Source: Haliotis rufescens | Taxonomy: Eukaryota | DNA: 64,000 bases | NCBI RefSeq assembly: GCF_023055435.1 | Contig: NW_025963779.1 | Span: 33,790,001-33,854,000 of the forward strand | Direction of reading: 5' to 3' | Part shown: positions 15,193-63,703 of the stretch, in pieces | How positions within the stretch are numbered: the first letter of the stretch is position 1 | Layout of the letters: every line of letters begins with the position of its first letter | Translations under genes and position numbers: made by a program | Notes under the pieces: model-generated | What the model was told of the DNA's origin: nothing | Database searches by the model: none | The model's input: the letters and a program-made list of their open reading frames with translations, nothing else

Positions 15193-15790
15193 TCAGTGTA
15201 ATGATGATGGACTGGATTGATTCAAAGCCAGGTATCTATTAATCTCGTCTTGTGTCTTCTGAGGAATGTCGTTGCCTGGCAACAGGGTCAAATACTTGAC
15301 AGTGGTGTTGCGCTTTAGGAGGTCAATAAGGGCACGACCTCCTGCCTCCCCGATTCCTGCATTGGCCACCTCCAGGGTCGACAGTGACGTGTTGCTCTTC
15401 AGCCCTTCAACAAGTATCTGAACACCCTCATCACCGACTTTGTTGTTCTGTATCGTCAAGGTCTTCAGGTTCTTGTTCTTTGCTAAGGCTGTTGCCAATT
15501 TGGACCATCCTGGCTTGGTGATGTCCGGACAGCTGCTGAGACTCAAAGTGTGAAGGTCAAGGTTACTCTCAAGAAGCAGTGCCACGTCCACCATGCCGTC
15601 GTCGGTGATGCTGGCCTCACTGAGGTCCAGTTCCTGCAGCTGACAGAAGCGGCCTTTGATGGACAAGATTGGTACTCCCCCCATCCGCTCCGACTCTCTC
15701 TTCTTGTACTCCTGGGCCTCGAACTCTATGTCCAACAGCCCATCCACAAGAGTCTGCAGACCCTCATTGCCTATGGGGTTGCCTTGTAAC
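15193..15790 (-). CDS. last exon, RI-like leucine-rich repeats (LRRC73-like)
   Basis: LQGNPIGNEG...LQELDLSEASITDDG...LSLSSCPDITKPGWSKLATAL...LTIQNNKVGDEG; LxxLxLxxNxI pattern; DITKPGWSKLA resembles recalled LRRC73 GITPKGWSRLA. Confidence 0.9.
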
Positions 15791-15972
15791 CTGCAACAAT
15801 GTATACACACATTACTGATACTCAAGTGACACCGTTCAACAAGGCTGAACTACTTCACTATCAAACATCAGCAGTGTTTTAAAAAGATGATTTGGGGGAA
15901 CAGTTGCGCTTGCTCAGTGGCAAATCAAGGTACAGGGCGGAAAGTGAACACTTATGCAATATAAATTATAGA

Positions 15973-16411
15973 TGTTTGGAGGACAAAACCGCCACAGTTG
16001 ATGATTGTTTGGAGGACAAAACCACTACAGTTCATGATTGTTTGGAGGACAAAACTGCTATAGTTGATGATTGTTCTGAGGTCAAAAGCACTACAGTTGA
16101 TGATTGTTTGGAGGACAAAACCGCCACAGTTGACGATTGTTTAGAGGACAAAAGTGCAACAGTTGATGATTGTTTGGAGGACAAAACCGCCACAGTTGAC
16201 GATTGTTTAGAGGACAAAAGCACTACAGTTGATGATTGTTTGGAGGACAAAACCGCCACAGTTGATGATTGTTTGGAGGACAAAACCGCCACAGTTAATG
16301 AATGTTTGGAGGACAAAACCGCCACAGTTGATGATTGTTTGGAGGACAAAACCGCCACAGTTAATGAATGTTTGGAGGACAGTACTGCCACAGTTGATGA
16401 ATGTTGAGGAC
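15973..16411. repeat. minisatellite, 33-bp unit x ~13, in LRR-gene intron
   Basis: TGTTTGGAGGACAAAACCGCCACAGTTGATGAT repeated. Confidence 0.95.
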
Positions 16412-16679
16412 AACAACACTACAAATGGATGACTCCTGAAACTACTTCGTAGGCTATAGGAAACACCGGACTTTCGGTGCAAATATTTGTGGGTGTATAC
16501 AAACATGCAGAATCTGCTGAAACTAGAGTCAACACAATATGGCTAATTTAAATTAATCTTGAAGTTTTTTTATATTTTTTTCCAACTAACTTCAGTGATA
16601 ATCAGTCAATAGACTTCAAAAGCACTTGTACGTTGTATGTATGTACTAGGAATTATTGCTGTCTCAACACAACACTTAC

Positions 16680-16771
16680 AGCAGCATGTCAATGGAGGGT
16701 TTGATCTTGAGCATCTCAACGAGTGGCACCACGCTGCGGGGACCGAGGATGTTATTGTTGAGGTTCAAGAT
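16680..16771 (-). CDS. LRR exon
   Basis: ttcAG|ILNLNNNILGPRSVVPLVEMLKIKPSIDML(L)|GTaagt; phase 0 to 2. Confidence 0.88.
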
Positions 16772-17375
16772 CTGAAACAGAATAAGATCACCTTCATTTG
16801 TACACTTCCCCAATGCTTTTGTCCCACATTGTATATCAATTTCTGTTTAAATGATAGCACTGAAATCATGTCATACCAGTAAGACAGTCCTGGTGGAGAT
16901 ATGGTAAGACCCGTGTTCAATTCCACACAATGGTACAATGAGAATTATCTCAACCGTGGTACAATCAGGACGTACCCCGGGTACATTTTGACCTATAGGG
17001 AAGTATGTTTATATTGTTATGTACCACTGTTCCAAAGGTTTGTACCTGGGGTTTCTCTGCGATAGTTTCTCATTCATTTCAGAGACATTCAACACTTTGC
17101 GTCAACATTGCCGCTCCCACTAAGCAATAAAAGGCCAACAGCTACCACACAACACCATGTCCTGCACGTGAATTGTTGATGTGACATGATTGTGGGAGCA
17201 GCCATGTTGAGGCTAGGTGGTGAATGTCACAACTATTCCTTGTGAACATAAATACATTGAAGTGTACATGATATCATTGTTGTGGTAGACAGTTAGCCAT
17301 GATACGTCTGGAATAATGCTACACAATTTTCATCTTAATCGCTATTCAGTCCTGCATTTAACATTGTATGCCTAG

Positions 17376-17794
17376 TACAATGACGAGTCCAAATTTACTA
17401 CCCGGGTACCCACCCCCCTATTACCCGACCCTACCTGGGTACCCGCTGTAGGTCTCAAGAGGTAGGTACAAACTGTCAGATTGGGAAAAGTTTGACTGTA
17501 GCCCTGGCAAAATGTGTTTAGATACATGTATAAAACGATCTGGTCACCCTTCACTGAAGTTGACTGAAGTTTTGTTTTTATTCAAACATAAAAATTTCAG
17601 AAGGAATGGGTGTAGTAGTCAGGAAGAACTGCTTAAAATTAGTGACTTGTAGTTTAAACATAGAGTTGTAGATATTTTTTGTCATTAAACAATATATCAC
17701 GTAACTAACCACAAGGCTGGGTAGTCCTGTGGGTACCCGGGTCCTACTCATTACCCACCCGACCCGAGTACCTGAGTTACCCGTCCCAGCCCTA
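17376..17794. mobile_element. hAT-like MITE family H
   Basis: homologous to the 62205 copy; perfect 8-bp TSD ATGCCTAG at 17368-17375 and 17795-17802. Confidence 0.87.
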
Positions 17795-18164
17795 ATGCCT
17801 AGATTCATATTTTACATGTGGTTAATGGTATAAAAGGGACAAGATGACAGACTGGTGTATTGCACTTGTATCAAAGTACATGCAGTATTAAAGGTATTGA
17901 TGGAGATCAGTTTTTTGTGACACTGGTTTATTAGAAACTTTTAGATGTGGATAACAGTGTAGAGATGCCTTCATTATGTGATATCATAACTGAACTAGAA
18001 CCTGGTGGTAGTATCTAGACTAGACATAGACAACACATGTATTATCAGTGCCCCAATCAATCAACAATCAAACAGGTGAAAATCCCTTTGCCAGACAGAA
18101 ATGCTGCATCGCTAATGCAGACTGCCCAGGGTATGCAGAGGGTGTGGTTAGAGGGCTGCCTCAC

Positions 18165-18296
18165 CCTGGGGTTGGAGGGGGACTTGGCCAGGGACTGGAG
18201 CAGCTTGTTCATGTCGTCCACCCCGAGGCTGCAGTTGGAGATGGTGACAGCTTGGAGGTTGTCCTTGATCTCAATTGTCTGCATTATCTCCACAAT
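18165..18296 (-). CDS. LRR exon
   Basis: ttcAG|IVEIMQTIEIKDNLQAVTISNCSLGVDDMNKLLQSLAKSPSNPR|GTgagg; 132 nt. Confidence 0.87.
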
Positions 18297-19038: not shown

Positions 19039-19202
19039 CTGTGGTTTAGTGAGGTTGATGTTGTGTATGTCGATGGCATTCTGGTCTTCCAGCAGCGGGG
19101 TGAGACTTCCTGAGTGCATCGTCTGTGGCGGCGGCTGCACAAACTCCAGTATAGACTGCCACTTGGCGCTGTCGTCATCGGCTACTCTGTCAGGGTCGTT
19201 AC
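19039..19202 (-). CDS. exon leading into LRR domain
   Basis: ttcAG|(G)NDPDRVADDSAKWQSILEFV...AIDIHNINLTKPQ|GTagtc; phase 1 to 0. Confidence 0.82.
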
Positions 19203-20499: not shown

Positions 20500-21195
20500 G
20501 CATTTCAAGTCCACATTAGTACCATATACAGTCTCCAGTAACGGTACCAGACCACCAACACAACAGATGACCGACCACGTAGTGGAAGACCAAGGGTCAC
20601 CACCCGATGTCAGGATCGTCATATTGTGCGACAGCATCTTCAAGATCACTTTGTTACTGCGACGGAAACTCCTCGAGAGACCATGGGGACACACCAGCAC
20701 ATTAGTGCGGAAACCGTGCGTCTACGATTGACAAGTAAACACCTCCACTGTCACAGGCCACACCGAGGACCCATTCTGACACCACCTCATTCCCGGGACC
20801 GTCTTCAGTGGGCAACACAGCACCAGCATTGGCAACACCAGCAATGGAGAAGAGTCCTCTTCTCAGACGAGACCCGTTACTGTATCTCAACAGCAGACGA
20901 CAGAGAGAGAGTCTGGCGACGCCATGGGGAACATTATTCGGATGCTTGTGTTGAGAGAGACTCGTGGGGTGGTCCGAGCATCATGGTGTGGGGTGGAATT
21001 GGTCTTGCACAGAGGGTCGGCACTGTGGTCTTTCAGAACATTGTTTCAGGGAGAGCAATGGTGTCACAGCAGCTCGGTACATTGATCAAGTCTTGAGACC
21101 ACACGGCATACCTCATTTGGCATGTCGCCCCAACCACAACGTTGTATCGACGTTGCACGGCAGTCATCAATGATGATGGCGGACACACAAGATAC
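20500..21195 (+). pseudogene. Tc1-family DDE transposase pseudogene
   Basis: RLQWA...WRRVLFSDETRY...RVWRR...GGPSIMVWGGI motifs; frameshifted into NGVTAARYIDQVLRPH and then truncated. Confidence 0.88.
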
Positions 21196-21582: not shown

Positions 21583-21645
21583 CTCCATGCATGTTCTCAG
21601 TCTCAGTCTCACTCTCACTGGTCGGTCTGGTTTGACCATTTTCAC
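21583..21645 (-). CDS. small exon
   Basis: aacAG|(G)ENGQTRPTSESETETENMHG G|GTaaaa; 63 nt, phase 1-1. Confidence 0.68.
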
Positions 21646-22452: not shown

Positions 22453-22647
22453 CTGACACAGTCTTGTCATCAGATTCTGCTGAATGTTTTGGCTGATACT
22501 CAAACTCAGCTGGCAGTCCACCAGGCTGTCGGGGGCCCTGTACGGGTGTCGCAACCCGATCCTGCCACTCCCCACTGCCCTGGGCCTCTCTTAGATCAGG
22601 CGTGGTTGGGATGACCACAACAGTCGGGACCGGAGGGGGCACTTGCT
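22453..22647 (-). CDS. Pro-rich exon
   Basis: ctcAG|(E)QVPPPVPTVVVIPTTPDLREAQ...DDKTVS G|GTtggt; 195 nt, phase 1-1. Confidence 0.72.
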
Positions 22648-24455: not shown

Positions 24456-24833
24456 CTGTCTGTTTGTCTAGCAGAGATTTTGAAGGCGATCTGGGTGGCG
24501 ACGGAAATGTCGTCTGCTCTGGTTGCGGTGTGGCATGTGGAGCAGGAAGCTTTGTCTGCTGTGGTTCATTTGTGTCCGAATCTTCAGGTTTGGCTTCATC
24601 ACCAACACTTGCATCAGTCGACACCACAGTCGGAGTGGCACCATCTGCAGTTTTGGGAGCGGCATCCTCCTTAGAAGCAGTGTCATCTGCCTGGAGGGTG
24701 GGGTCCTTACTTCCCCGGGGGGTTTCTTCCTGCACAATAAGCTCCCCCTCACTCTCCGACTCCAACTCCGAGGATGAGCCGGAGGAGTTGCTGCTGTCAC
24801 TGCTGGAGTCCACACTGGACGACCCGGATTCTG
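24456..24833 (-). CDS. Ser/Glu/Pro-rich exon
   Basis: tttaCAG CAG acceptor, ESGSSSVDSSSDSS...LLDKQT G|GTaatg; 378 nt, phase 1-1. Confidence 0.82.
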
Positions 24834-25978: not shown

Positions 25979-27238
25979 CAGATTTCTTCCCATCACCATC
26001 AGCAGAGTCCTTCCTCTCACTTCTATCAGCAGCAGCCATGAGACTTTCCCTGTCCATGTCAGGAGGGACAGCTGGCGCCATTATTGCCGCCGCCGCCACG
26101 ATAGTGCTGGACAGGACCGCCTGTCTCTCACTCACTACAGTATTGCCCTTGTCTGCGTTCTGCTGTACGTCCTTGTCATTGGCAGAGTCAGCTAGTGCTG
26201 CAGCACCTTCTACAGGGACGGGGCTTGTCACTGGTTTACTCGGGTATTTATCTTGACTAGATTTATCTGATTCCTCATCACTTAAGGTTTGACTCCTGAC
26301 TTTCTCTTTCCTTGATGGGAATGGTGTGATTGGCCGGGCTGATCTTTCACTTTCAGATCCTGAGCCAGAGCCAGAAATAGAACTGGAACTTTCTGAATCC
26401 TCTACTTGATTGGAAATGGCTTCGGGCTTAGTTTTCTGCACTGGAGTTCTTTCTTTGACAGGGCTTGATTTTGAGTCATCAGTTTCAGAATCAGATGATG
26501 AGTAAGAACTGGAGTCCTCTGAGGAACTGCTGGACTCTCTGACACTCTCAGACTCTCCCCCTCGAGTAGCTGTGGATTCTGGTTCAGACCTAGCAGAGTC
26601 CATCATGGGAGGGAGAGTTATCTGTTTCGAGACCAAGGATTCCTCTTCTAGTGTCTCCTTCCTCGGTTCTTCTTCCCCCTTCTTGCTTAGTGATAATTTA
26701 TTGTTTTCTTCTTTCATCTCCTCTTCCTTCCTCTCCTCTTTCTCCTCCTGAATCAGTGTCTCTGCTACGGGAGACTTGGGTCGTTCTGGCAAACTAGTTG
26801 GCCTACTCTCAGTATCAGAAGCTGAGGACGAGGAAGTAGAACTCTTGTAAGAGTATGATCCATCACTCATCATGTTAGCCTCTGCAATACGAGATGGTGC
26901 TCGATCTGCCTCAGAAACAACCCCCAAAGCTTTGGTTGGAGTAACTAATCTACTCTCAGTCACTTCTCTGGGGGTACTTTTCTCTGACGGCGTTGAGGAG
27001 GATGAGGAGGAGGAGGAGAAAGAAGATTCTGATGATGAGTAATCACCATCTCGGTCCTCATCCCTTCCTGGAGGTTTCAGCTGTGTCACTGGAGGAGAGG
27101 ATCTGTTGCTTGCAGCAGCATCCTTAACCTGGACTACCTCAGGTTTAGCAGTGTCCTCTTTCTGAGACACTGTAAAGAATAACGTCCTTGCTTTACTGGA
27201 CCTTTCATTATCATTCTTAGAGGCTTCCCTTGGGGCAT
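25979..27238 (-). CDS. large Ser/Glu-rich exon (alternative in-frame acceptors at 27238 and 27169)
   Basis: 403-aa ORF 25959-27170; donor TCT G|GTaagg at 25979; phase 1-1. Confidence 0.85.
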
Positions 27239-27329: not shown

Positions 27330-29550
27330 GGTAATGCAAAAACAGGTAATATAAGATACAGGTAATGCATGTAAGACATAGGTAATGCAAGATACAGGTA
27401 ATGCATGCACGATACAGGTAATGCAAGATACAGGTAACAGAACAAACAGGTAATGCATATACCATACAGGTAATGCGAGCTACAGAAAATGCATGCAAGA
27501 TACAGATAATGCATTCAAGATACAGATAATGAATGCAAGATAGAGGTAATGCAAGATGCAGGTAAGGCATGCAAGATACAAATAAGGCAAGATACAGGTA
27601 AGGCATGCAAGATACAGGTAATGCAAGATACAGGTAAGGCATGCAAGATACAGGTAATGCTAGATACAGGTAATGCCAGATGCAGGTAAGGCATGCACGA
27701 TACAGGTAATGCAAGATACAGGTAAGGCATGCAAGATACAGATAAGGCAAGATACAGGTAAGGCATGCAAGATACAGGTAATGCAAGATACAGGTAAGGC
27801 ATGCAAGATACAGGTAATGCTAGATGCAGATAAGGCATGCAAGATACAGGTAAGGCAAGATACAGGTAAGGCATGCAAGATGCAGGTAATGCTAGATACA
27901 GGTAAGGCATGCAAGATACAGGTAATGCTAGATACAGGTAAGGCATGCAAGATACAGGTAAGGCATGAAGATACAGGTAAGGCATGCAAGATACAGGTAA
28001 ATGCAGGTAATGCAAGATACAGGTTATGAATATACGATAAAGGTAATGCCAGATACAGATAATGCATGCAAGATACAGGTAATGCCAGATACAGGTAATG
28101 CAAGAACCAGGTAATGCAAGATACAGGTAAGTCATGCAAGATACAGGTAAGGCATGCAAGATACAGGTTAGGCAAGATACAGATAATGCATATATGATAC
28201 AGGTAATGCATATACGATACAGGTAATGCAAGATACAGGTGATGCAAGATACAGGTAATGCAAGATACAGGTAAGGCATGCAAGATACAGGTTAGGCAAG
28301 ATACAGGTAATGCAAGATACAGGTTAGGCAAGATACAGGTAAGGCATGCAATATATTGGTAACGCAAGATACATGTAAGGCATGCAAGATACAGGTAAGG
28401 CATGCAAGATACAGGTAAAGCATGCAAGATAAAGGTAATGCAAGATACAGGTAAGGCATGCAAGATACAGGTAATACAAGATACAGATAATGCAAGATAC
28501 AGGAAATGCCAGATACCGGTAATGCAAGATACAGATAATGCAAGATACAGATAATGCATGCAAGATACGGGTAAGGCATGCAAGAAACAGGTAAGGCATG
28601 CAAGATACAGGTAATGCAAGATACAGGTAAGGCAAGATACGGGTAATGCAAGATACAGGTAATGCATGCAAGATACGGGTAATGCAAGATACAGATAATG
28701 CAAGATACAGATAATGCATGCAAGATACAGGTAAGGCATGCAAGATACGGGTAAGGCATGCAAGAAACAGGTAAGGCATGCAAGATACGGGTAAGGCATG
28801 CAAGATACGGGTAAGGCATGCAAGAAACAGGTAAGGCATGCAAGATACAGATAATGCAAGATACAGATAATGCATGCAAGATACAGGTAAGGCATGCAAG
28901 ATACGGGTAAGGCATGCAAGAAACAGGTAAGGCATGCAAGATACAGATAATGCAAGATACAGATAATGCATGCAAGATACAGGTAATGCACGATACAGGT
29001 AAGGCATGCAAGATACAGGTAATGCAAGATACAGGTAAGGCATGCACGATACAGGTAATGCAAGATACAGATAATGTATGCAAGATACAGGTAATGCAAG
29101 ATACAGGTAAGGCATGCAAGATACAAATAAGGCAAGATACAGGTAAGGCATGCAAGATACAGGTAATGCAAGATACAGATAATGCATGCAAGATACAGGT
29201 AATGCAGGATACAGGTAAGGCATGCAAGATACAGGTAATGCACGATACAGGTAAGGCATGCAAGATACAGGTAATGCAAGATAGGGCATGCAAGATACAG
29301 GTAATGCAAGACACAGGTAAGGCATGCAAGGTACAGGTAATGCAAGATACAGATAATGCATGTAAGATACAGGTAATGCAAGATACAGGTAAGCCATGCA
29401 AGATACAGGTTATGCAAGATAAGGTAATATAAGATAAAGATAATACAGGAAATAGATAATGCATGCAAGATACAGGTAAGGACACATACAGGTAATGCAT
29501 GCAATGAAAGGACACACACTGATAATGCAAGAGTCAGATAATGCAACATG
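27330..29550. repeat. composite minisatellite of 16- and 20-bp units (~2.2 kb)
   Basis: interspersed GATACAGGTAATGCAA and GATACAGGTAAGGCATGCAA units. Confidence 0.97.
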
Positions 29551-30071: not shown

Positions 30072-30147
30072 CTGATTTCTTCTCAACCACAATGGTTTTG
30101 TCTTTCTTGCCATCTAAATCTTCCTCCTCTGATGAGTATCCCTCCAC
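30072..30147 (-). CDS. acidic exon
   Basis: tttAG|VEGYSSEEEDLDGKKDKTIVVEKKS G|GTgggt; phase 0 to 1. Confidence 0.78.
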
Positions 30148-30715: not shown

Positions 30716-30933
30716 CTTTCTCATAGTGTCGTCTTCAAAATCCCCCACCACATCAGGATTAGCAGATTTTTCAGCTGAAACAAATGCATTCTTTTCATCT
30801 TCTTTCTCATCGTCCGCAAAGTCAGCGGCAAGTCCTCTTATCTGACGTTTGTCCTCATCTGGTTCCTCAGCAATTGGCTCCTCGGTTACGTCCTGTTTGT
30901 TCCCTTTGTTGTCCCAGTCCTTGTGGAAGAGCA
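30716..30933 (-). CDS. acidic exon (ERICH3 long isoform or LRR gene)
   Basis: ctgcAG|(V)LFHKDWDNKGNKQDVTEEPIAEE...DFEDDTMRK|GTcagt; phase 1 to 0. Confidence 0.8.
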
Positions 30934-37770: not shown

Positions 37771-39839
37771 TCAGTCCACATGTTCAGTGATGATAGTGGG
37801 CAGACTCTGGCTCTCTTCCCTCATCAACCCTACACTAGACTTGTTCTCTGTGTGGTTGTTGCACTCCGTGTACAGCCCTGTGTCCTCTGAGGTCAATGTC
37901 CTATCGGGAACAGACCCAGCAGCAGCCTCCGCAGAAGAATTCCTTTCTGATTCAGTGTCAGAAGACATAATCCTGTCATGTCTGGTAAGAACAGGAGTCC
38001 TGTATTGTTTGTCTTGGGAAGAAGGAAGCTTATACTGTCTTGTGTCAGGAATTCTTTCAGGAGACAAAGTCCTTCCTGGACTACCATCATTGCTATCTGG
38101 AGACTGGGTCCTAGCGAGTCTTGTCTTCGCTTCATCCTGAGACAGGACCTTGTCCTGTGAAGGGTGACACCCTCCCTCCACCAGTATGATCGGAATCTGC
38201 TGCTGCATATCAGCATCTCTTGTTGAGTCTAAACTTGGCCTCCTCTTGGTATCACACTGTCTTGGACTGATGACTTCATCCTCAGGCTGCTCCTGGTTAG
38301 CATGGGAACCTCCTGTCCACACAACACAATCCTTCTCAACAACGCCACTACAAGGTACTGATAGGAGACTTTCCCCACCAACACTGACTCGTCTTGGAAC
38401 ACCACCAGGGTTCTTTGCATTGATATCAGCCAGTGTGACCTCCACATTGTTGAACTGCTCGTCTGATGATGTCAGCATGTTTCTTGGGTCATCTTTAGCT
38501 TCAGATAACCTTCTCTCCTGACTAATCTGTCCTGATGCAGCCATGTGAGCTTCTGAGCTGTCAATCAGAATTTTGGGCAAGTCAGCTGAAGGACCAACTT
38601 CTTGTCCGTTTCCTGCTGCAGGATGACTTTCTTTAACATCATGCAATTCTGTAGTCATATTCTCTCTGGAACCATTTTGAACGTCATTATGAGATGTCTC
38701 TGCATGGTTCAAAACCTTGTGGGACAGTCCCTGACTATCTTCAGTCCCAGCTCGTTCATCCAGTTCTGTAAGCCGAGCAGCATATTGAGCCACCATGTCT
38801 TCCGATGTTTCACTCCCTGAGGTTCCCCGGTCCCCACCACCAACTTCTACTGATTTCCCCTCTCCTTCCACATCTGACTCTGTGCCTCTTTCATCCATCT
38901 CCTCCTCATAACCAACAGTGACATGTTCCCGGCAAGGCTCCACATCATCCACCCGATCGGAAAACAATGTCACTCCTGATTTGTTCACCGAAATTTCCGG
39001 AATGTCCGATGTCTGATCATCATCTTTCTTTCTGTCGGCTGCATCAGATGCTCGAAGACCCAAGGGTTCATCCTTTTCTTGTTCCACTCCTTCTTCATAG
39101 GCTACAATTCCAATCTCATAATTCTTGTCCTTGCTGATGTTGCTACGCCTCTTCTTCTTTATCTTCTCCTTCCCTGAACCATCATCTTCCTTATCTCTAT
39201 GAACAACAACATTAACATCCGATTTCTCATCCTCTTCATCATCCATTTTAAAAGATGTCCTTTTCTTTTGGCCATTATTTTTCTGCTTTTTAGGCGATAA
39301 AATCCCTTGAATCTTTTTAGAAGGTTTCTGTGGTTTTGGGGGTAAGGCATCATTAACTCTCTGTTTTGGACCGGCATTAATCTCTTCCTCTGACTTCCGA
39401 GGCCACTCAACATCTGTCTCAATGTCTGACACATCATCTGCAGTGTCAGCGTCAGCATCATCAACTTCCTTCTGGGATGAAACCACTTTGTTTGAGGTGT
39501 GGGTGGATTTGCTGGAGGAGCTAGACTTTGCCTCATATTCTTCTTCACTGGAAGAGCTGGAGCTACTCGAGCTGTCCCTCCCAGAGTTCTCCTTGTACTT
39601 ATCTCTCATTCTTTTAACTAAATCTTCTGAACCTGAGCTATCAGCTTCACTGTCATCTGTTTCTTCCTGAACATTATCCTCAACAGCAGTTATCTCCATT
39701 TTTTCTGCATTTCGAAAACTGAAATTAGTTGCAGGTTGTTGAGATTCTCCTTGGTGATTGTCTTTGTTGGAATGGTCCGACTGATCTGCTTCTTGACCTT
39801 CGATCTCTACATCAGTGCGAGCTGTAACAGCACCTCCCC
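37771..39839 (-). CDS. ERICH3: large Glu/Asp/Ser-rich terminal exon of ERICH3 (short isoform)
   Basis: ttgtAG|GG GGA GGT phase-1 acceptor in frame with the 642-aa ORF 37771-39699; ends TEHVD*; acidic low-complexity sequence as expected for an ERICH3 C-terminus. Confidence 0.85.
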
Positions 39840-42030
39840 CTACAACACAGCAAACATCAACGTGTTGGCTCTAATAAACATACATACACATTTCTGTACA
39901 TAGAAACAGCTCAATAATTACTGAATAAGCTATTTACAAATTGTTTATAAAAACTTTAACCATTGGATTTAAATATTTACATCAAGAAAATGTCAAGCAT
40001 TAATTGTGTACATGCTTAGTGAATAATTGTGAATGTAATAAATAAAAATTACCATGCATTTAAATCACTTATATAAGCATCTTAAAACTTCAAATTCATA
40101 AAATTACCCAATGAGAACATTTTCTGATGATGCTGATCAAACTTATATAAGATTTATATGCCACACAGCAACAGATTGCATGCATTACTTTAAAGCAACT
40201 TATCACTCACACATTTTGACTAAACTAGAAAATTAGAAATAATCTTTCATTTAAATTTATGGTCAAAAAGATCCTTCATAACACATATAAGCAATGTAGC
40301 TTAATGGCTTTCAGAAACACAGGTATCAATTTTTTAATGCAAACACTGCAGGCAATTCACAGCAAAGTGTAATTTGAAACTCACTTTCTTCATTCCTAGA
40401 TAAAACGGCATGTGATTATATTTTACATCAGTCAGACAATGTTCTCAAAATACAGTGCATTCTGTATATCATCACCTAACAAGATTCATGCAGATTTTGT
40501 TGTTCAAAGCAATTACAAATGTCAATACTTTATAGTCCGTTGTATTTTCAAAGAGAGAAAGGATTTGATTGAAGACTCCTTGTGGAGAAGTAATGGAACC
40601 AAAAGGTGTTGACCTTGAGACGTGAAATCAAAGTAATTATGCTTCCTCTAGGAGGAGATGGATACAGAAAGCACCATAGGATATTTCTGTTGAACAAACC
40701 TGTTAGTGTTTTGTGCACGAGTCTGGCATCATGGACGGAAACGGACAAACATGGCGGTGGTTGTGAGTGATTTATAAACATCATGCTTGGTGGAACGGAT
40801 AAATGCTTTTATCAGACTAATGTTAGTCTAACTGAAGGAGTGGAAAGTAAGCTGCAGGTCCTATTGAGGCATTGCTGGACTTCAGATGAGAAAATGCTCA
40901 TTATGTCAACAGAACAGTTAGCACCACTGGTACACTTAAACACATCTGAAAATGAAGAATCTTCATCCACTGATGTTACCTTACCCAATATATTCAGGAA
41001 AGATTCAAGAATTTGATAATTAATCATAAACAGTAACATTACTTATGGTTATGACAATATACGATCATTAACACATTCACAAACTAACAGCTGGCTTCAT
41101 GGAATTGATCCATATTTGACAAATATTCCCTACAATTAATTTACTGTATTCTACATAATAAGTGCCCAGGGCGCTCTCAAAATTAAAAATAAGAGGCTCT
41201 TATTAGAATATTATTTTGGTGAAAAAAGATCAGTTGAAAGATCGTTAATTTCATGGTTTATGCTGACAGCCTGAACTGTTTATATACGACAGATATATTT
41301 TTCCAGAATTTAATTGCCCATAATTAAGGGTGCATATAACACATGATCGAGTGCGTATTACACACGAATAAATTCAAGTCTTGTGTACATTGATCAATTG
41401 GAAGGGGTGCTAATTGGGATTGTTCACTTGCCAATATATTAGCAAATATCGCCGTGGGCGCTTATTAGAGCGGGGCGCTTATTATGTCGAATATGGTAAT
41501 CTCATCAAAATCAGATCTTTTTACGCTGATGTACCTCTCAGTGCTAAGCTCTAAAACACATCCATGGATCACATCAAATGAGCCCTGAGCGAACTTTGAC
41601 CGCCCAATCTAAAGGCTGTCAAGTTTATAAAATGATTTGCTTGATTTTGAACTGAAAACTCACATGGAACACAACAATATGATGTAGCTGCTATACATTC
41701 TACATTGAACTAGTTGTTGTAGTTCATTTTCAGGACACAGAAATCATACATTTCAATGCGACGCTGACACTAGAATCTAGAAGCCTTGACACTGATTGGC
41801 TGATGAGAAAGTTCACCTGACGCGACCTCCTATAGAAGTGACCTCAGATCTTCACAAAGACAGTAATCTATTGGAATAAAAGATCTGACTTTGATGAGAC
41901 TGAAAAATAAAACGTTCAGAAATCCAAGATGATACTTTGTAACACGTGTTATTTGTTAGTCAGTGTTCCAAGTCAACGTGCCACGTGTGAGAAGTAACGG
42001 TCACACACAAACGTGATGTACGGTAATCAC

Positions 42031-42099
42031 CAGTGAGGGGTTTTGGGGCATCTGTTTCATCAGCAACAGGGATGCCAGGCTGTACCTTACTGACTCCAT
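42031..42099 (-). CDS. ERICH3: candidate small ERICH3 exon
   Basis: cacAG|(D)GVSKVQPGIPVADETDAPKPLT G|GTgatt; 69 nt, phase 1-1. Confidence 0.5.
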
Positions 42100-45000
42100 C
42101 TGTGGTTAACATCAACGTACCATCATACCAACACTGAGTCATCATACCGTATCAGTCATATCATGTCACACATTTACTTTATTGGATGGTGGATAAAATG
42201 TCTTTGGACATTGCATATTGGTTTTGAGAATAACATTTTCTTGTTATCCGTCTTTTACAAATGGTGTTATTTTAATTTCTTGTCGAAGCAAAAACAATTA
42301 CCCTTTGCCAATGTACTCTCCTTTGTTTCTTGTCAGTCACATTTGTTAGGTCAGTTAACATTTGTTTCCTTTTTAACTAGTTATGCTTTTTCTCTCAACT
42401 GATTAACATGACTATTTGGTGTAGTTAACCTTCATTATTGAAGAGAATTTTAATAAAACAAGGCAAGACAGGTGGCTTATTTATGAACTAGTCATTGAAA
42501 TATCAAAATGTATTTACCTATTGCCATAAAATATTTCAGTATGCCTTTAACATGTGTGAAGCATGAAATTACCTGTCTGTGTATATACATAATGAAATTT
42601 GTCGAGTCATTTCAAAAGCAGAGAACAAAATCAATGGTTAGCAATGGATTTTGCTAGTGCTAGACATCATTTATTAATATTATTATTATTGTTGTTGTTG
42701 TTGACCTACACAATACAAAGGTCAAATTCAAACAATACCATCACCAACTATAGGAGTATATATAGCTAATTGAAAAACAAACATTTCAAAAAATACATTC
42801 TACATCTTTCCCTAGTCCATTTTTGTAAGAGTGCATCCATGTAACTAGAAATATTAAAGTTAACGTAAGACAGCTTCATGCCTACATTCTCTAAAAAAGA
42901 ATTTGTCTTAAAACAATTCCAGGCCTTATTTATAGTGACTGTGGGGGGTCTCTTGAGAAAATAATGAAAACTCCCCAAAATGTAAATAAATCCAGTTTCA
43001 AAATCTTAACTTTGAATCAAAAGTTCACAAAACACCATTTCCTTGGAAAGCTTTAATACTTGCATACAATACAATAAAAAAGAATTCACATTGTAAGATC
43101 TATGATTACAGGTAATTATATCAAGAAAGCAAGAAGAAAAGAGCAAAGTAGCCAAAGCCCCACATCATCCTAAAGCAGCCTCCGTACCTCGATACATAAC
43201 AGTTTTCAGGCACCATTTTGTGTACATAGAAATGTAGGTACTAGAACAGCATATCGAACTTCACAGTATGATATATAACCACAACAACATTCTCACTAGT
43301 GAAGCATCTTCATCTTAATACATAAACATATGATAATTTATTCTGTCAAATATATGATAATTTATTCTGTCAAAATGAAATAACTCGGAGAGAATACATG
43401 AATAAAATGTAATCTGTAATATGCTGCTTCTTTAACTAGCAAAAGAAAACAATTACCTTCACTAATAATATAAGTATACATAATTAATAACAATAACTGT
43501 GAGACCACCAAACGTAAGCTTCCATCATGTGGTCTGTAATTGATGAAATTAGCACCCATTGCTTAATGATGAACCCTTCCCTAACCTATCTTTACATAAA
43601 TATTTGTCAGAAACTATGACTACTGAATTATAAATTGGAATCCAAAGAATTAGTGTTATTATTCAACATGTTGTTATAATAAAACATCCCTTGATTTTTC
43701 TTTAACTTATAATTTTGGATTGACAACTTGACTCTCAAAAGTCAACAATGTGGTAACACAAGTACAAACTAAACTTGACATTAAAGTAATACCAAGAGTC
43801 CTAGCACATGTCCTAGCAGGTATCATACTGAGTCCTAGCAATACCAATAGGTGCCTCCTTTGATCCCTAATTAGAAACAGGGTGCAAGCAACAATATTAC
43901 AGTAATTAATCACAAATTAAATGAGCACACCCTATCATATCATAATCAATAAGCACTACATTTCTATGCAATATCAATGAGAATAAGAATATTATAATTA
44001 ATAAAATCCATCTACTGAAAATATATAGTTTTTATTTTTATAGAAATCTTGTTTCTCTCAGAAGAAACTATCTTTATCACGTGTAGCAGAATAGGCTGTT
44101 AAGCATTGTGCTAGATAAGCTAAAGATAAATCTAGTCTATATTGCGAGAACTACAAATTTCATCCCTGGTGTATGGATCTTCTAGCCCTCTGGAATAGAC
44201 ACATGAGTTGCGTTGAGAATGGGACCAGGGAGCCAGCATTAACACATCCTCTATTTTCAGGAATTTGTATCACCATTATGTTGACCATACAATTGACATT
44301 ATTTGGTAATGTCTTCCAAACTGCAATTTCTAATTCAGAAAAGCATGATGGTTTTAATCAGCTATCTAGAGATGGGTCACAACCTCTCTCAAAGCTGATT
44401 AAATTCATAGCAAATATTGCTCTTCTATAGTCAAACTGTGACATAAATTAATTCCTTTTAACTCCTGCTTTAACCAGATGATGTATGGACTTATAAACCT
44501 AAGTGATGTCATCCCATTGTCCTGTCATTGTCTCTATACATCATAAAATCTTCAACTTGCGCAGTACCCAGAAATCTTAGGCATAAAATCCTGGGTGTTT
44601 AATTTATAAAATCCACACAAATACAATCGATTTTACACACAGATACAATTGATTTTATATTTCAGTGGATCAAACTTGAGCCTGTGAGTGTCCCACTAGG
44701 CTACAGAGGCGCTGATAATCCACAATACTTTTAAGTAGTACTGGTTCATGGAAAATGTGTTTGAAACATAAAATTGTTAATAAATGTTGCTTCAGATTTT
44801 TCATTTGGTTTATAAGACAGATAAAACACTCCTCCTCAGGATGTTATGAGATTGAAAACCTTGGATGTGTTTTTCCTGCACGTATAGTACCTGTCTGTGT
44901 GACAGGTCTGTCAGTATAGATACTGCATGAGTTGTGAAATACCAGCTATATCAAGACAGCCATCAAGTGGCAGCTTTTGTAACAAAACCACAGGGCACTA

Positions 45001-46016: not shown

Positions 46017-46019
<3 letters not shown>

Positions 46020-46078: not shown

Positions 46079-46147
46079 CTTCATCGGGCTGCTGGCTCCT
46101 CCCGGAGGGGCTGTCATCTTCATCCTCAAAGTCAGACTCATAAGCAT
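46079..46147 (-). CDS. ERICH3: ERICH3 exon
   Basis: ttccAG|(D)AYESDFEDEDDSPSGRSQQPDE G|GTaggg; 69 nt, phase 1-1; acidic YESDFE motif. Confidence 0.8.
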
Positions 46148-49488: not shown

Positions 49489-49551
49489 CCTCGTTATTGT
49501 CCCGTGCGTCAGCGCCATCTACCTCCACGGGAACCAAGATTTGGTCGTGGG
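49489..49551 (-). CDS. ERICH3: candidate small ERICH3 exon
   Basis: ttcAG|(A)HDQILVPVEVDGADARDNNE G|GTataa; 63 nt, symmetric phase 1-1. Confidence 0.5.
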
Positions 49552-49789: not shown

Positions 49790-52172
49790 ACATATGACAT
49801 GCCTAGACCCTACACCCCACACATGACATGCCTAGACCCCACACCTCACACATGACATGCCCAGACCCCACACCTCACACATGACATGTCATGACCCCAC
49901 ATCTCACACATGACATGCCTAGACCCCACACCTCACACATGACATGCCTAGACCCCACACCCCACACATAACATGCCTAGACCCCACACCTCACACATCA
50001 CATGCCTAGACCCCACACCCCACACATAACATGCCTAGACTCCACACCTCACACATAACATGCCTAGACCCCACACCTCACACATAACATGCCTAGACCC
50101 CGAACCTCACACATCACATGTCATGACCCCACACCCCACACATGACATGCCTAGACCCCACACCTCACTCATGACATGCCTAGACCCCACACCACACACA
50201 CGACATGTCATGACCCCACACCTCACACATCACATGTCATGACCCCACACCTCACACATCACATACCTAGACCCCACACCGCACACATCACATGCCAAGA
50301 CCCCACACCCCACACGTGACATGCCTAGACCCCACACCTCACACATCACATGCCTAGACCCCGATTCTCACACCACATGCCTAGACCCCTCACCTCACAC
50401 ATGACATGACATGATCCCACACCCCACACATGACATGCCCAGACCCCACACCCCACACATGACATGACATGACCCCACACATGACATGCCTAGACCCCAC
50501 ACCTCACACATGACATGCCTAGACCCCACACCCCACACATGACATGCCTAGACCCCACACCCCACACATGACATGCCTAGACCCCACACCCCACACATGA
50601 CATGCCTAGACCCCACACCCCACACATGACATGCCTAGACCCCACACCTCACACATGACATGCCTAGACCCCACACCCCACACATGACATGCCTAGACCC
50701 CACACCCCACACATGACATGCCTAGACCCCACACCCCACACATGACATGCCTAGACCCCGATTCTCACACATGACATGACATGACCCCACACCCCACACA
50801 TGACATGCCTAGACCCCACACCCCACACATGACATGCCTAGACTCCTCACCTCACACATGACATGACATGACCCCACACCCCACACATGACATGCCTAGA
50901 CCCCACACCTCACACATGACATGCCTAGACCCCACACCTCACACATGACATGCCTAGACCCTGATTCTCACACATGACATGCCTAGACTCCTCACCTCAG
51001 ACATGACATGCCTAGACCCCACACCTCACACATAACATGCCTAGACCCCACACCCCACACATGACATGCCTAGACCCCAACCCTCACTCATGACATGCCT
51101 AGACCCCACACCACACACACGACATGTCATGACCCCTCACCTCACACATGACATGACATGACATGACCCCACACATGACATGCCCAGACCCCACACCCCA
51201 CACATGACATGACATGACCCCACACATGACGTGCCTAGACCCCACACCCCACACATGACATGCCTAGACCCCACACCTCACACATGACATGCCTAGACCC
51301 CACACCCCACACATGACATGCCTTGACCCCACACCCCACACATGACATGCCTAGACCCTGATTCTCACACATGACATGACATGACCCCACACCCCACACA
51401 TGACATGCCTAGACCCCACACCCCACACATGACATGCCTAGACCCTGATTCTCACACATGACATGACATGACCCCACACCCCACACATGACATGCCTAGA
51501 CCCCACACCCCACACATGACATGCCTAGACTCCTCACCTCACACATGACATGACATGACCCCACACCCCACACATGACATGCCTAGACCCCACACCTCAC
51601 ACATGACATGCCTAGACCCCACACCTCACACATGACATGCCTAGACCCCACACCTCACACATGACATGCCTAGACTCCTCACCTCAGACATGACATGCCT
51701 AGACCCCACACCTCACACATCACATGTCATGACCCCACACCCCACACATGACATGCCTAGACCCCACACCTCACTCATGACATGCCTAGACCCCACACCA
51801 CACACACATGTCATGACCCCTCACCTCACACATGACATGACATGACATGACCCCACACATGACATGCCCAGACCCCACACCCCACACATGACATGACATG
51901 ACCCCACACATGACATGCCTAGACCCCACACCTCACACATGACATGCCTAGACCCAAAACCCTCACACATGACATACCCGGACCCCGAACCTCACACATG
52001 ACATGCCTAGACCCCACACCTCACACATGACATGCCAAGACCCCACACCTCACCCATGACATGCCTAGACCCCACACCTCACACATTACATGCCTAGACC
52101 CCACACCTCACACATGACATGCCAAGACCCCACACCTCACCCATGAAATGTCACGACCCCACACCCTCACAT
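49790..52172. repeat. minisatellite, 29-bp unit x ~80
   Basis: CATGACATGCCTAGACCCCACACC(T/C)CACA repeated, ending ~40 bp from the donor of exon 52212-52369. Confidence 0.97.
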
Positions 52173-52211: not shown

Positions 52212-52369
52212 CAGACTCTTCCTCATCTGATTGTTTTGCTTTCTCCGTCTCCTTGGGGGATGGTTCAGAGACTTGCACAACAATCACCTCCTCCCCTGGG
52301 TTGCTTGAGGGCTGCTGCATCTTCTTGGGAGGGGCCTTGCCGCCAACCATCCCCTTCTGAACCTGGCAC
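52212..52369 (-). CDS. ERICH3: ERICH3 exon
   Basis: ctcAG|G TGC CAG (completes PCYKC)...QSDEEES G|GTaggt; phase 2 to 1. Confidence 0.88.
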
Positions 52370-53780: not shown

Positions 53781-53967
53781 TTGTAGCAGGGATTCATGCC
53801 TTTGATGACAACAAAGCTGAAGTGACCTTGCTTGGCCCCGAGTCGGACTTTCTTGGAGTGGCCGAACTCACAACACGTGCTGACCCTTGCATCTTGCCGG
53901 CCATCTACGTACAACGTCAGACTGAATGGGTAGCCCCGGTGACGCTTTGATGTGAAGCTGAACTTGC
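53781..53967 (-). CDS. ERICH3: ERICH3 exon, DUF4590 core
   Basis: KFSFTSKRHRGYPFSLTLYVDGRQDARVSTCCEFGHSKKVRLGAKQGHFSFVVIKGMNPCYK; AG/GT, phase 1 to 2. Confidence 0.93.
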
Positions 53968-54067
53968 CTGGAGACAATGAATGCAAGGCTGGACATGTTT
54001 GTATAAACTTATTGTCACCTTATACTACATGTGCTCTCAGTGAAGCCTCTTAACACTGTCAGAGACA

Positions 54068-55085
54068 CCTTTATACTCACTTCCTGACTCAATAAGACCC
54101 ATATACTCACTTCCTGGCTCAATGAGACCCATATACTCATTTCCTGGCTCAATGAGACCCTTATACTCACTCCCTGACTCAATAAGACCCATATACTCAC
54201 TACCTGGCTCAATGAGACCCTTATGCTCATTTCCTGGCTCAATGAGACCCTTATAATCACTTCCTGGCTCAATGAGACCCTCATACTCACTACCTGGCTC
54301 AATGAGACCCTCATACTCACTTCCTGGCTCAATGAGACCCTTATACTCATTTCTGGCTCAATGAGACCCTCATACTCACTTCCTGGCTTAATGAGACCCT
54401 TATACTCACTCCCTGGCTCAATGAGACCCTCATACTCACTTCCTGGCTCAATGAGACCCTTATACTCACTACCTGGATCAATGAGACCCTCATACTCACT
54501 TCCAGGCTCAATGAGACCCTCATACTCACTTCCTGGCTTAATGAGACCCTTTTACTCACTCCCTGGCTCAATGAGACCCTCATACTCACTTCCTGGCTCA
54601 ATGAGACCCTTATACTCATTTCTGGCTCAATGAGACCCTCATACTCACTTCCTGGCTTAATGAGACCCTTATACTCACTCCCTGGCTCAATGAGACCCTC
54701 ATACTCACTTCCTGGCTCAATGAGACCCTTATACTCACTACCTGGATCAATGAGACCCTCATACTCACTTCCAGGCTCAATGAGACCCTCATACTCACTT
54801 CCTGGCTTAATGAGACCCTTATACTCACTCCCTGGCTCAATGAGACCCTCATACTCACTTCCTGGCTCAATGAGACCCTTATACTCACTACCTGGCTCAA
54901 TGAGACCCTCATACTCACTTCCTGGCTCAATGAGACCCTTATACTCACTACCTGGCTCAATGAGACCCTCATACTCACTTCCTGGCTCAATGAGACCCTT
55001 ATACTCACTTCCTGGATCAATGAGACCCTCATACTCACTTCCAGGCTCAATGAGACCCTCATACTCACTTCCAGGCTCAATGAGG
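54068..55085. repeat. minisatellite, 30-bp unit x ~34, derived from exon end + 5' splice site
   Basis: minus-strand unit GGGTCTCATTGAGCCAGGAA|GTGAGTAT(G/A)A; first unit overlaps the real exon end at 55069. Confidence 0.97.
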
Positions 55086-55273
55086 CCCTTGAACACAGTC
55101 AGGGTGTTGCCCCCACAATGTTGCTGCTCCACGCTGACATCGTGCCGGTTGTCGGTTCTCTCTCGAGCAAGTTTGAGAGCCCAGCCATGGAACTTCATGG
55201 TCACCTCACAGTTCGAGTGGATGTCCCCCTGGTGTCTCATTGCCGGCTCTCTCCGGTGCAGGTCAACCCCAGG
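55069..55273 (-). CDS. ERICH3: ERICH3 exon, start of DUF4590
   Basis: ttgcAG|PGVDLHRR...CEVTMKFHG...VSVEQQHCGGNTLTVFKGLIEPG A|GTgagt; QQHCGG motif of DUF4590; phase 0 to 1. Confidence 0.92.
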
Positions 55274-56027: not shown

Positions 56028-56219
56028 ACTCCGTTTGGGTGACTTATCGCTGCTGGTAGAGCGCCCCCTGTTTCCAGCGCTGCGATGTCGGGCAGGGCCA
56101 GTGCGGGGGGAGGAGGGGGGGATGGGTATCTGTGGAATCAGATATGGGGAGGCCAAGGTGTTTGTCTGCTCCATCTTCGCCAGAGCAGTCGCATAACGCC
56201 GCAGGGCAAGTGGGTTCAG
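56028..56219 (-). CDS. ERICH3: ERICH3 exon
   Basis: ttcAG|LNPLALRRYATALAKMEQ...SPKRS|GTatgt; 192 nt, phase 0-0. Confidence 0.82.
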
Positions 56220-56847: not shown

Positions 56848-56973
56848 AGAGTAGAGGTGTCTGGCATCAATCTCCTCCCTGCTGCGTGGAGTTCTGCTAC
56901 GTCCAGATCTTACAAGGGGCTGCTCACAGTCCGACATGTCGATCGTGTTGCCATCGTCATCAACATAGATGAC
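56848..56973 (-). CDS. ERICH3: ERICH3 exon
   Basis: atgtAG|VIYVDDDGNTIDMSDCEQPLVRSGRSRTPRSREEIDARHLYS|GTaagg; 126 nt, phase 0-0. Confidence 0.8.
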
Positions 56974-57534: not shown

Positions 57535-57723
57535 ATCAGCATCCTCATCATTGGATTCATACACTGACGAGTTAGTATCAGGCATATTAGAGGGTGCACT
57601 GATGGGGCGGTACTTCCCCGAGCGGTGGCGGTGGGGGCGTGGCGAGGGCCCTGACTGGGGCCGACTAGAGCGAGGGGATAGGAAAGGCAAGATATCCTCA
57701 TCGCTCCTCCGAACACGCTGTGT
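57535..57723 (-). CDS. ERICH3: ERICH3 exon
   Basis: ttgtAG|TQRVRRSDEDILPFLSPRSSRPQSGP...NDEDAD|GTgagt; 189 nt, phase 0-0. Confidence 0.85.
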
Positions 57724-61762: not shown

Positions 61763-61972
61763 CCGCTCTTCAATAAGCAGTTCGTTCTCAGCATACCCCC
61801 CAGAACGGGGGGTGGGGGTTCGATGGCCTTGGGAACGAGGAGAATCACTCCTGTCCCTTTTACCCTCAGATCGAGATCGGGTATGGCGCTTATAGGGGGC
61901 ATCCTTCTCCCGCGGACTCCCTGTGATCAGGGGCAGGAGAGCTTCGTCTACTGCATGGCAATTCCTTTCACC
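61763..61972 (-). CDS. ERICH3: ERICH3 candidate alternative exon (paralog of 57535-57723)
   Basis: caccAG|GERNCHAVDEALLPLITGSPR...LLIEER|GTacac; 210 nt, phase 0-0, GC-rich island in an AT-rich intron. Confidence 0.6.
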
Positions 61973-62204
61973 CTGGTGTCCCACAATACTCAGTTATTTT
62001 GTGAAATATGTACATTGAACAAAAGGTTAGAACATATATCATACATTTAGAAACATATGGATTGGTTTCAAGTTACTTGTATCGCATGTCATTGGTTTTC
62101 ATCCTCGACTAGCGAGAGTAGTATTCCTCCAAAACATAAACTGCCAGGCAAAAGAAAGTAAACACCCATGTTAGATGGTAGCAAAAATGAAACAATCAAG
62201 AAAC

Positions 62205-62623
62205 TAGGGCTGGGATGAGTCCAAATTAAATACCCAGGTACCCGACCCCTATTACCTGACCCTACCTGGGTACCCACTTTAGGTCTCAAGAGTTGGTACA
62301 AAATGTCTGATTGGGAATTGTTTTACCGCAGCCCTGGTAATAACTATTTACATGCTCGTATCAAACAATCAGATCATGTGTACACTGAAGATGACTGAAG
62401 CGTTATCTTTACTCAAACATATACAAGTTAAAAGGAATGTGTGCATCATCAGAAAGAAATGTGAACATTAGCGACTTGTAATGTTACCACTGAGCTATTG
62501 TGATTTTTTGTCATTAAACAATTTATCACGTGACTAACCATGGGTCTGGGTAGTAGTGTGTGTACCCGGGTCCTTCTCAGGACCCACCCGACCCGAGTAC
62601 CCGAGTTACCCGTCCCAGCCCTA
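62205..62623. mobile_element. hAT-like MITE family H
   Basis: TAGGGCTGGGA...TCCCAGCCCTA termini, subterminal TACCCG motifs; imperfect 8-bp TSD CAAGAAAC/CAAGAAGT. Confidence 0.87.
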
Positions 62624-63004
62624 CAAGAAGTGGTTATTCAGTGGAGTATAATTGATACGGGTATCATCGTTGTGTCTTGGTGTTTCTTCCATTTGTCCAG
62701 TGTATTGGCAAACTGTTTTCAGTCTAGCAACATTTTTAATAACATTTGTAAGGTTTTGTTCAAATCTTAATTTCAAGTATATGCTTTCTTTTGCCTGGCA
62801 TTTTATGAATCATAAATACATATTCACTGCCATAGCATCCTTTGGGAAGCGCATCGCTTCTAGTACATGTCCCTTGTGACACCTATTGCAAGACACATTT
62901 CATGACACATATTTCAAACATTAGCATGATACATATTGTCAGACATTATTATGGATACATGTTTTAGGACACCTATTTTGCAACACCTCTCCTGCGACAC
63001 CTAC

Positions 63005-63202
63005 CCTGACTCTCTGCACCAGCTCAATCTTGGCTATCTCCTCCAGTTTCTGTCTGATAGCCACTTGGCGATGTCGCTCCAGGTCCAGGGTCTTGTGGAC
63101 AATGGCCTGAGCCAGAAGATCCTTCACATGCTTCTTGTGTTCTTTGCGTGCTATGTTTAAGCGGTAGCTCGTCTCCGTAACAATCTGCCCGCGTCGGGTG
63201 AT
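63005..63202 (-). CDS. ERICH3: ERICH3 exon
   Basis: ITRRGQIVTETSYRLNIARKEHKKHVKDLLAQAIVHKTLDLERHRQVAIRQKLEEIAKIELVQRVR; AG/GT, 198 nt, phase 0-0. Confidence 0.92.
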
Positions 63203-63609
63203 CTGGAGGAAAAAATACATTCAATTATTGTGACAAAGTCACTCTGGTAAAATTTGTTCATCACCCAGAAACCTTATTAAACCAAACCCAGTTTTATCTG
63301 GAAACTACTTTTTTCATTTATTCGAAAGTATATTTTCCTCGGAACAATATCATCAATATTAATTGAATTGCACTGCATTTAAAATTTTGACGAGATGGAC
63401 ATTTCTGAAAGATCATATCAAAATGTGTCACTTGAACAGAAAAAAACATTCTGTTATACATATTTTAAACTTCAATTTCTTTGACCATGTTTACAAAATT
63501 CCCTCAGCATTTATATCAACACAGCAATGATTCTAATTATAGGAAGTAATATGATATTAACGATGAAAATGATGTTGAATGTCTCAAAGTAAAAAAAAGG
63601 ACTACGAAC

Positions 63610-63703
63610 CAGCCCCGATTTCCGCAGATGTCCGCGCATCTTGGTGTTGGCGAAGTAGCCAGCCAGGTGCTTGTCACTTAGGCTGTTGTAAGCCGAGAGT
63701 TGA
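63610..63703 (-). CDS. ERICH3: ERICH3 N-terminal exon (start-codon exon lies beyond the window)
   Basis: QLSAYNSLSDKHLAGYFANTKMRGHLRKSGL resembles the recalled vertebrate ERICH3 N-terminus (AYNSLxDKHLAGYF); ttcAG / GTtcgt, phase 2 to 0. Confidence 0.9.

Follow-up and report, generated by a model that had tools for sequence, protein, structure and literature searches.

Introduction

Vertebrate ERICH3 (C1orf173) acts as a trafficking factor in cilia and is an antidepressant-response gene; to our knowledge it has been studied only in its vertebrate form. Here we describe the single ERICH3 gene found on the minus strand of a 64,000-nucleotide stretch of the abalone Haliotis rufescens (NCBI RefSeq assembly GCF_023055435.1, contig NW_025963779.1, positions 33,790,001 to 33,854,000 of the forward strand; hereafter the window, to which positions refer), where the ERICH3 head can be followed by three different tails, the longest ending in a domain of leucine-rich repeats (LRR).

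The human protein of 1,530 amino acids (aa), similar in total length to the abalone long form, is reported along cilia, where it is needed to clear intraflagellar transport (IFT) and Hedgehog proteins and has a role in retrograde IFT (PMC6848114). The pull-down of CLTC, AP2A2 and PIK3C2A requires the N-terminal part of the human protein, which binds clathrin-pathway proteins, and the tail by itself does not bind them (PMC8141066). Like the abalone gene, human ERICH3 has alternative ends and starts, but it differs in that one exon (exon 14) encodes half of the reading frame (PMC8141066). The best vertebrate sequences share with the abalone protein a head that is orthologous (identity of 36-38% across about 410 residues), a Y-x-x-DFE motif after the DUF4590 domain and a long acidic tail. 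What vertebrate ERICH3 lacks is the motif of the second abalone tail described below and, as a preliminary description of the window made from the letters alone had stated, the LRR (absent from 15 of 15 vertebrate sequences).

The likely closest relative of the repeats themselves, LRRC73, is reported to stain motile cilia and rootlets, and no function is known for it (bioRxiv 2025.03.18.643967). Both LRRC73 and the ERICH3 LRR are colinear nine-repeat domains of the ribonuclease-inhibitor class. LRRC73, with an LRR of about 260 residues plus a tail, is a separate gene with its own clade, starts its repeats at residue 1 and contains no DUF4590. They also share one intron at an identical codon and phase, a position common in this LRR class. 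The axonemal LRR proteins DRC5/TCTE1, LRRC34 and RSP15 belong to the same fold class, and DRC5 chains rank first in the Foldseek results for the ERICH3 LRR and are tied near the top with VIA, but at 20-26% identity these proteins are no closer to it than are NLR or RanGAP repeats; a fold held in common is no evidence of function.

The ERICH3 family is already known, and the long form is present, unremarked, in automatic annotations: RefSeq models named 'glutamate-rich protein 3-like' in Haliotis and other invertebrates (e.g. XP_046362443.2) contain the identical LRR isoform under names which omit the LRR. Within the literature searched (largely open papers, without supplements, so that ciliary proteome tables could list these proteins) nothing was found on an invertebrate ERICH3-LRR protein, DUF4590 appeared in a single paper and ERICH3 was never discussed together with LRRC73. 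New here are two unannotated abalone branches, a conserved mollusc switch with its motif, the paralogy with LRRC73 and a likely loss in vertebrates. The finding concerns domain architecture and splicing and not a new biochemical system.

Gene structure and alternative last exons

Exons were picked by eye and then verified by coordinates (Table 1). Twenty exons running from 63703 to a stop at 15193 have AG/GT ends throughout and form a single open frame, which bears out the continuous frame of about 1,530 codons from the ERICH3 N-terminus to the LRR described previously; the count is 1,554 codons with exon 42099-42031 and about 1,531 without it. The chain is that of two H. rufescens RefSeq proteins, with 0 mismatches (XP_046362443.2, 1,565 aa, and XP_048251046.1, 1,558 aa). 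The start codon was located outside the window, in a coding exon of 20 nt some 2.3 kb from its end (L013 position 2278). The exon chain listed earlier was right but had missed 61972-61763, the cassette 49551-49489 and the terminal exon from 44189, and the isoforms of about 1,530 and 1,190 aa given there match chains without the cassette. The full proteins comprise 1,565/1,558 aa for the LRR form (branch C), 1,219/1,212 aa for the acidic-tailed form (branch B) and 509/502 aa for the head-only form (branch A). The second DUF4590 exon (53781..53967) had one match only in the genome, and ERICH3 is present as a single copy.

Contigs from four public runs, representing up to four studies, were placed on 41950-46400. 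The runs were taken as RNA by guess, there being no RNA record among them; the contigs are plainly spliced and were judged by their junctions. The donor at 46079 was observed joined to three acceptors. The junction to 30933 was present as a loose end in runs X1 and X4 (two studies), in which 29 of 30 letters correspond to the start of exon 30933, while GT-AG joints linked 46079 to 42099 (runs X8 and X1) and to 44189 (run X12, with 70 letters on the short side, and run X4). The 69-nt exon which begins at 42099 continued to 39839 in a loose end of runs X8 and X1 (30 of 30 letters match), and in the four runs it was observed solely on this route and not on the way to 30933. Of the two junctions to 30933 put forward previously, the one from 46079 was found, and the one from 42031 was not seen in contigs of the four runs, where absence proves nothing. 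The earlier proposal of one locus with an alternative last exon is supported by the gene models and by spliced contigs in which one donor leads to different terminal exons, except that there are three arms and not two. Since donor 46079 has three partners, proteins of 1,565, 1,219 and 509 aa are expected.

On branch A the frame reaches a stop at 44184-44182 after two codons and is followed by a 3' untranslated region (UTR) of at least 2.7 kb. As had been predicted, the phase-1 acceptor at 39839 opens an exon of 2.07 kb (2,069 nt, 688 codons) with its own stop at 37771. The branch B 3' UTR continues to about 34,870, contigs of runs X1 and X12 stopping at 34,869 and 34,867, which is a weak hint of an end. 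Polyadenylation hexamers are present between the parts of the gene; contigs cannot show ends. Run X12 also contains contigs of lower depth, within 37613-44189, that are unspliced across exons 42099 and 39839, which suggests either read-through of terminal exon A or unspliced RNA.

All 13 full-length proteins among the 14 Haliotis records listed, from four species, contain the 46079-30933 junction and the LRR (the remaining record is a 184-aa LRR piece), and the automatic models of the four species carry DUF4590 and LRR in a single chain. Exons 44189, 42099 and 39839 are used by none of these 14 records. Elsewhere, head and LRR are encoded together on five contigs which are too short for sizeable introns and which support a single mRNA: P0072 (1,544 aa on 4,898 nt), P0118 (1,407 aa on 5,033 nt), P0127 (1,290 aa on 4,053 nt), P0112 (965 aa on 3,870 nt) and P0107 (897 aa on 5,654 nt).

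Domain content and distribution among homologues

Pfam analysis placed both DUF4590 (PF15257, E 3e-38; 130.5 bits against a gathering cut-off of 27) and LRR_6 (E 4e-10) in protein P0054. The structure model begins with an N-terminal helix, which is followed by a DUF4590 rich in beta strands, by some 400 residues of disorder and by nine strand-helix repeats. DUF4590 has invariant Cys and His residues. After the head, branches B and C are acidic and of low complexity (Glu plus Asp 21-22%, Ser 13-17%), and the predicted local distance difference test (pLDDT) score is below 50 over almost all of residues 421-836, indicating a predicted disordered acidic spacer. The LRR was modelled with pLDDT above 90 over most of its length as a horseshoe of the ribonuclease-inhibitor class and superimposes on ribonuclease inhibitor 4PER with a Z score of 27.2 (root mean square deviation 3.0, 272 residues aligned). 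A sequence search gave no solved relative of the ERICH3 head, Pfam gave no match for the branch B coding exon, and BLAST searches of the homologues with branch B and with the linker gave nothing significant beyond short motifs.

A search with the head, based on shared words and limited to proteins of 837-2,664 aa, returned 83 homologues. An LRR profile detected the repeats in 43 of them (43/68 non-vertebrate and 0/15 vertebrate sequences), so that the DUF4590 plus LRR architecture for which a search had been proposed is widespread in invertebrates and not a fusion derived in abalone. The named genera that carry it number 23 and belong to five phyla (molluscs, nemerteans, one annelid, one flatworm and echinoderms), and it is present in further rows as well. 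In the abalone protein (1,144-1,565 aa) the LRR is C-terminal. In a head tree of 35 of the 83 sequences, five LRR-bearing rows were sister to the vertebrates with a support of 87 in the SH-like approximate likelihood ratio test (SH-aLRT); tunicates would fit, as a guess. P0118 and P0127 grouped together outside the named clades, with a loose placement, and would by a similar guess fit cnidarians. Seven models from scallop, Tubulanus and Macrostomum (P0090-P0093, P0095, P0097 and P0113) carry a PLAT domain (PF01477) besides DUF4590 and LRR.

Conservation of the switch in molluscs

LRR-bearing and LRR-less proteins of Crassostrea virginica, Magallana and Mytilus diverge after the same Y-x-DDFE exon, and abalone branch B contains a 26-residue acidic motif common to the LRR-less isoforms of oyster and mussel. 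A profile made from three bivalve segments scored the abalone exon at 28.5 bits, compared with at most 9.5 bits in 500 shuffles, none of which reached the score of the exon, and it also found Lottia, Nucella, Elysia and Solemya. Among 38 mollusc rows, which include isoforms and are not independent, the motif was present in 10 of the 17 that lack the LRR and in just 1 of the 21 that have it, the exception being P0075, which seems to join both branches. Since the motif is common to LRR-less isoforms of other molluscs, the last-exon switch is likely to be mollusc-wide, and the sequences point to the motif as one short stretch of the acidic tail that likely has a function. Oyster-type proteins P0069-P0071 and P0089 show further alternative ends shortly before the LRR, and bivalves therefore have more than one switch point.

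Relationship of the LRR domain to LRRC73

A genome search with the LRR of P0118 identified a stand-alone H. rufescens LRRC73 on another contig (G000 C223, 43.10 Mb) with four coding exons and 366 aa; the abalone LRR exon as query had missed it. Its first exon retrieves a stand-alone family from fish, a ray, monotremes, a hemichordate, bivalves and Haliotis. Abalone LRRC73 shares 41% identity with fish LRRC73, compared with 25% between it and the abalone ERICH3 LRR. In reciprocal profile comparisons LRRC73 and the ERICH3 LRR were mutually the best non-self family among the proteins compared (128-186 bits, end to end, full-length rows), in line with the description of the repeats as LRRC73-like. 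A word-limited search of shorter proteins with the P0118 LRR gave nine matches, among them no full stand-alone copy and no LRRC73.

In a careful tree of 20 rows LRRC73 and the ERICH3 LRR were split with support of 100/100, vertebrate LRRC73 falling with the stand-alone invertebrate genes. Approximately unbiased (AU) tests rejected both a tree in which the abalone ERICH3 LRR was forced beside abalone LRRC73, as in a recent fusion (p 2e-7), and one in which vertebrate LRRC73 was forced among deuterostome ERICH3 LRRs, as in a split-off (p 5e-6). Both genes have been kept in Haliotis, Antedon and Anneissia. An LRRC73 orthologue would be expected to fall within the clade of vertebrate LRRC73 and to start its repeats at residue 1, and the ERICH3 LRR does neither. 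The joint branch of ERICH3 LRR and LRRC73 received an SH-aLRT support of 90 in a quick tree of 51 rows. The tree split, the rejected constraints and the retention of both genes together indicate a paralogue arising from a duplication older than the protostome-deuterostome split, and from these sequence comparisons the ERICH3 LRR is likely an ancient sister paralogue of LRRC73. The earlier view that the LRR is LRRC73 itself joined to ERICH3 by fusion was excluded by the separate abalone gene, the 25% identity and the rejected constrained trees.

Table 1. Coding features of the abalone ERICH3 gene in the window and, in the last line, of the abalone LRRC73 gene on its other contig.
Feature	Position	Strand	Remarks
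Coding exon 2, N-terminal conserved YNSLxDKHL region	63610..63703	-	exon 1 about 2.3 kb outside the window
Exon 3, predicted long N-terminal helix, residues 48-111	63005..63202	-	
Exon 4a, alternative to 4b	61763..61972	-	
Exon 4b	57535..57723	-	
Exon 5	56848..56973	-	
Exon 6	56028..56219	-	
Exon 7, DUF4590 first half	55069..55273	-	
Exon 8, DUF4590 second half	53781..53967	-	
Exon 9	52212..52369	-	
Cassette exon 10, 63 nt	49489..49551	-	included in runs X1 and X12, skipped in run X4
Branch exon 11, YESDFEDE motif	46079..46147	-	donor 46079 joined to three acceptors
Terminal exon A	41436..44189	-	low coordinate is a contig end, not a mapped 3' end
Branch B exon, 69 nt, between 46079 and 39839	42031..42099	-	
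Terminal exon B, coding part, 688 codons, acidic/Ser-rich	37771..39839	-	
Branch B conserved acidic motif	39382..39459	-	common to LRR-less isoforms of other gastropods and bivalves
Branch C (LRR branch) first exon	30716..30933	-	
Branch C linker exon	30072..30147	-	
Branch C Ser/Glu-rich linker exon, 1,260 nt	25979..27238	-	skipped in RefSeq isoforms X7 and X8
Branch C linker exon	24456..24833	-	
Branch C linker exon	22453..22647	-	skipped in RefSeq isoform X6
Branch C exon with start of conserved MHGGxDPD motif preceding the LRR	21583..21645	-	
LRR exon 1, cap and first repeat	19039..19202	-	
LRR exon 2	18165..18296	-	
LRR exon 3	16680..16771	-	
Terminal exon C, coding part, repeats 4-9 of nine and stop	15193..15790	-	ribonuclease-inhibitor class
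LRRC73 coding exons	L009:510-782, L009:1522-1681, L012:1521-1743, L012:2644-3086		

Other features of the window

The N-terminal exon 63610-63703 has no Pfam match, and its YNSLxDxHLxxYF motif resembles, we presume, the start of FSIP2. Exons 4a and 4b are both phase-0 with loosely similar starts and are used singly in models of H. rufescens, H. cracherodii and H. asinina, while one H. rubra model contains both; they may be a duplicated, near mutually exclusive pair. At 54067-55090 a 30-bp tandem array of 34 copies repeats the donor of the first DUF4590 exon. It holds 29 GTGAGT sites, of which the initial 15 share one phase. The RefSeq models splice from the first site, and a later one, if used, would insert 10-residue repeats into DUF4590. 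A 53-bp duplication at 30147-30254 copies the acceptor of exon 30147-30072.

A cyclase-associated protein exon (CAP_C, E 3e-11) at 4993-5112 on the plus strand lies tail-to-tail with ERICH3, and a Tc1/mariner transposase remnant (HTH_Tnp_Tc3_2, E 1e-11) occupies 20542-21093 of an intron, also on the plus strand. Very high-copy transcribed repeats, with summed contig depth of tens to hundreds of thousands, are present at 31300-31517, 37208-37375 and 41231-41500, of which the element at 37208-37375, inside the branch B 3' UTR, has by eye the look of a tRNA-derived short interspersed nuclear element. Long intronic minisatellites at 27334-29504 (36-bp units) and 49790-52171 (29-bp units) give spurious long open frames.

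Discussion

We consider it probable that a single ERICH3 gene uses donor 46079 to reach three tails, that the longest is made as one mRNA in which a predicted disordered spacer leads to a nine-repeat LRR, an ancient sister of LRRC73, that this form was ancestral in bilaterians and lost in vertebrates, and that the protein works in cilia as a head plus a chosen tail. By analogy with the human protein, the head would bring the protein to the cilium and bind trafficking partners, and the tail would be set by which acceptor is used, a choice coupled to that of the 3' end. Branch A would then supply the head alone, branch B an acidic tail containing a single short and conserved motif for binding, and branch C a tether to a protein-binding LRR horseshoe, the likely purpose being to provide differing versions of one ciliary scaffold for differing ciliated cell types.

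The preliminary description had named two adjacent genes as the alternative. In that case ERICH3 would end either at 44189 or at 39839, an independent LRR gene would start at 30933 or below, and the joined form would be an annotation artefact or rare read-through. The short-read contigs, the 30-letter short side of the key junction, the in-frame ATGs downstream and the polyadenylation hexamers between the two parts are compatible with this, but the 46079-30933 junction was found in two studies, the same architecture recurs across five phyla (23 named genera) and on five contigs free of introns, and none of the nine matches of the word-limited search of shorter proteins was a full stand-alone copy of the P0118 LRR, which together render two genes highly improbable. 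We give hardly any credence to the idea that ERICH3 captured LRRC73 in this lineage or that the end of an ancestral ERICH3-LRR split off to become vertebrate LRRC73. The end-to-end colinearity, the best reciprocal profile scores and the ciliary location of both human proteins would suit such a history, but Haliotis, Antedon and Anneissia each carry both genes, vertebrate LRRC73 groups with stand-alone invertebrate genes (100/100) and both constrained trees were rejected under the model used. Structure and history could also be as we describe, with branches A and B representing early 3' ends that are not regulated and whose sole effect is less of the LRR form. Two codons are all that branch A contributes, branch B is of low complexity without a domain, oysters have further early ends elsewhere and contig depth cannot show regulation; against this, the branch point is conserved, and the frame of branch B has stayed open for 688 codons and includes a motif conserved between gastropods and bivalves. 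The open frame and motif argue for selection on B and are silent on A, and we regard unregulated ends as quite unlikely.

Several observations weigh against our preferred reading of one gene with three tails. The contigs joining 46079 to 30933 have about 30 letters on the short side, below the 31-letter rule for a bridge, although an overlap of this length is expected where contigs break at a branch point. The loose-end rows examined were those listed, with 24 further rows in existence, and the status of the runs as RNA is a guess. The read evidence comes from short contigs and covers the branch at 46079, upstream of the junctions from 30072 down to 15790, and 13 in-frame ATGs between 30933 and 18165 leave room for an extra internal start; human ERICH3 has internal first exons (PMC8141066). 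With regard to LRRC73, the ERICH3 LRRs did not form one group in the 51-row quick tree (two changes, long branches), LRRC34 and DRC5 were not among its outgroups, LRRC71 was also outside the comparison, and Atlas placed LRRC73 at rank 3 with a tied score of 0.95 in one query and did not list it in another. Because LRRC34 and DRC5 are absent from the trees and the Atlas scores are not separated, we have to regard the sisterhood as likely but not closed. The LRR is absent from ctenophore (4 rows), Limulus (1) and cestode (2) homologues, and no amphioxus, lamprey, shark, named cnidarian or tunicate was among the homologues obtained within the length limits and by shared words, so that the dates of gain and loss are loose. 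The branch-B motif was found in no vertebrate row, and the vertebrate tail is therefore not equated with branch B. Localisation, partners and tissue use in abalone are inferred only, and contig depth cannot show tissue use.

An ERICH3 head and an LRRC73-type LRR might constitute one ancient ciliary module in which invertebrates switch the LRR by the choice of last exon, and in which vertebrates, having lost the built-in LRR, have it supplied in trans by LRRC73 binding to ERICH3 or to its partner. We put this forward tentatively and think it rather unlikely, but if true it would place both orphan proteins in a shared pathway.

On the basis of the homologues compared, the ERICH3-LRR form was likely present in the bilaterian ancestor and lost in vertebrates, and if most invertebrate copies carry a folded LRR then human ERICH3 is likely a derived, shortened version. 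The three-way choice of last exon, with its kept motif, marks a stretch of the acidic tail as likely functional, and the relationship between the LRR and LRRC73 provides something concrete to test in two ciliary proteins that are poorly understood.

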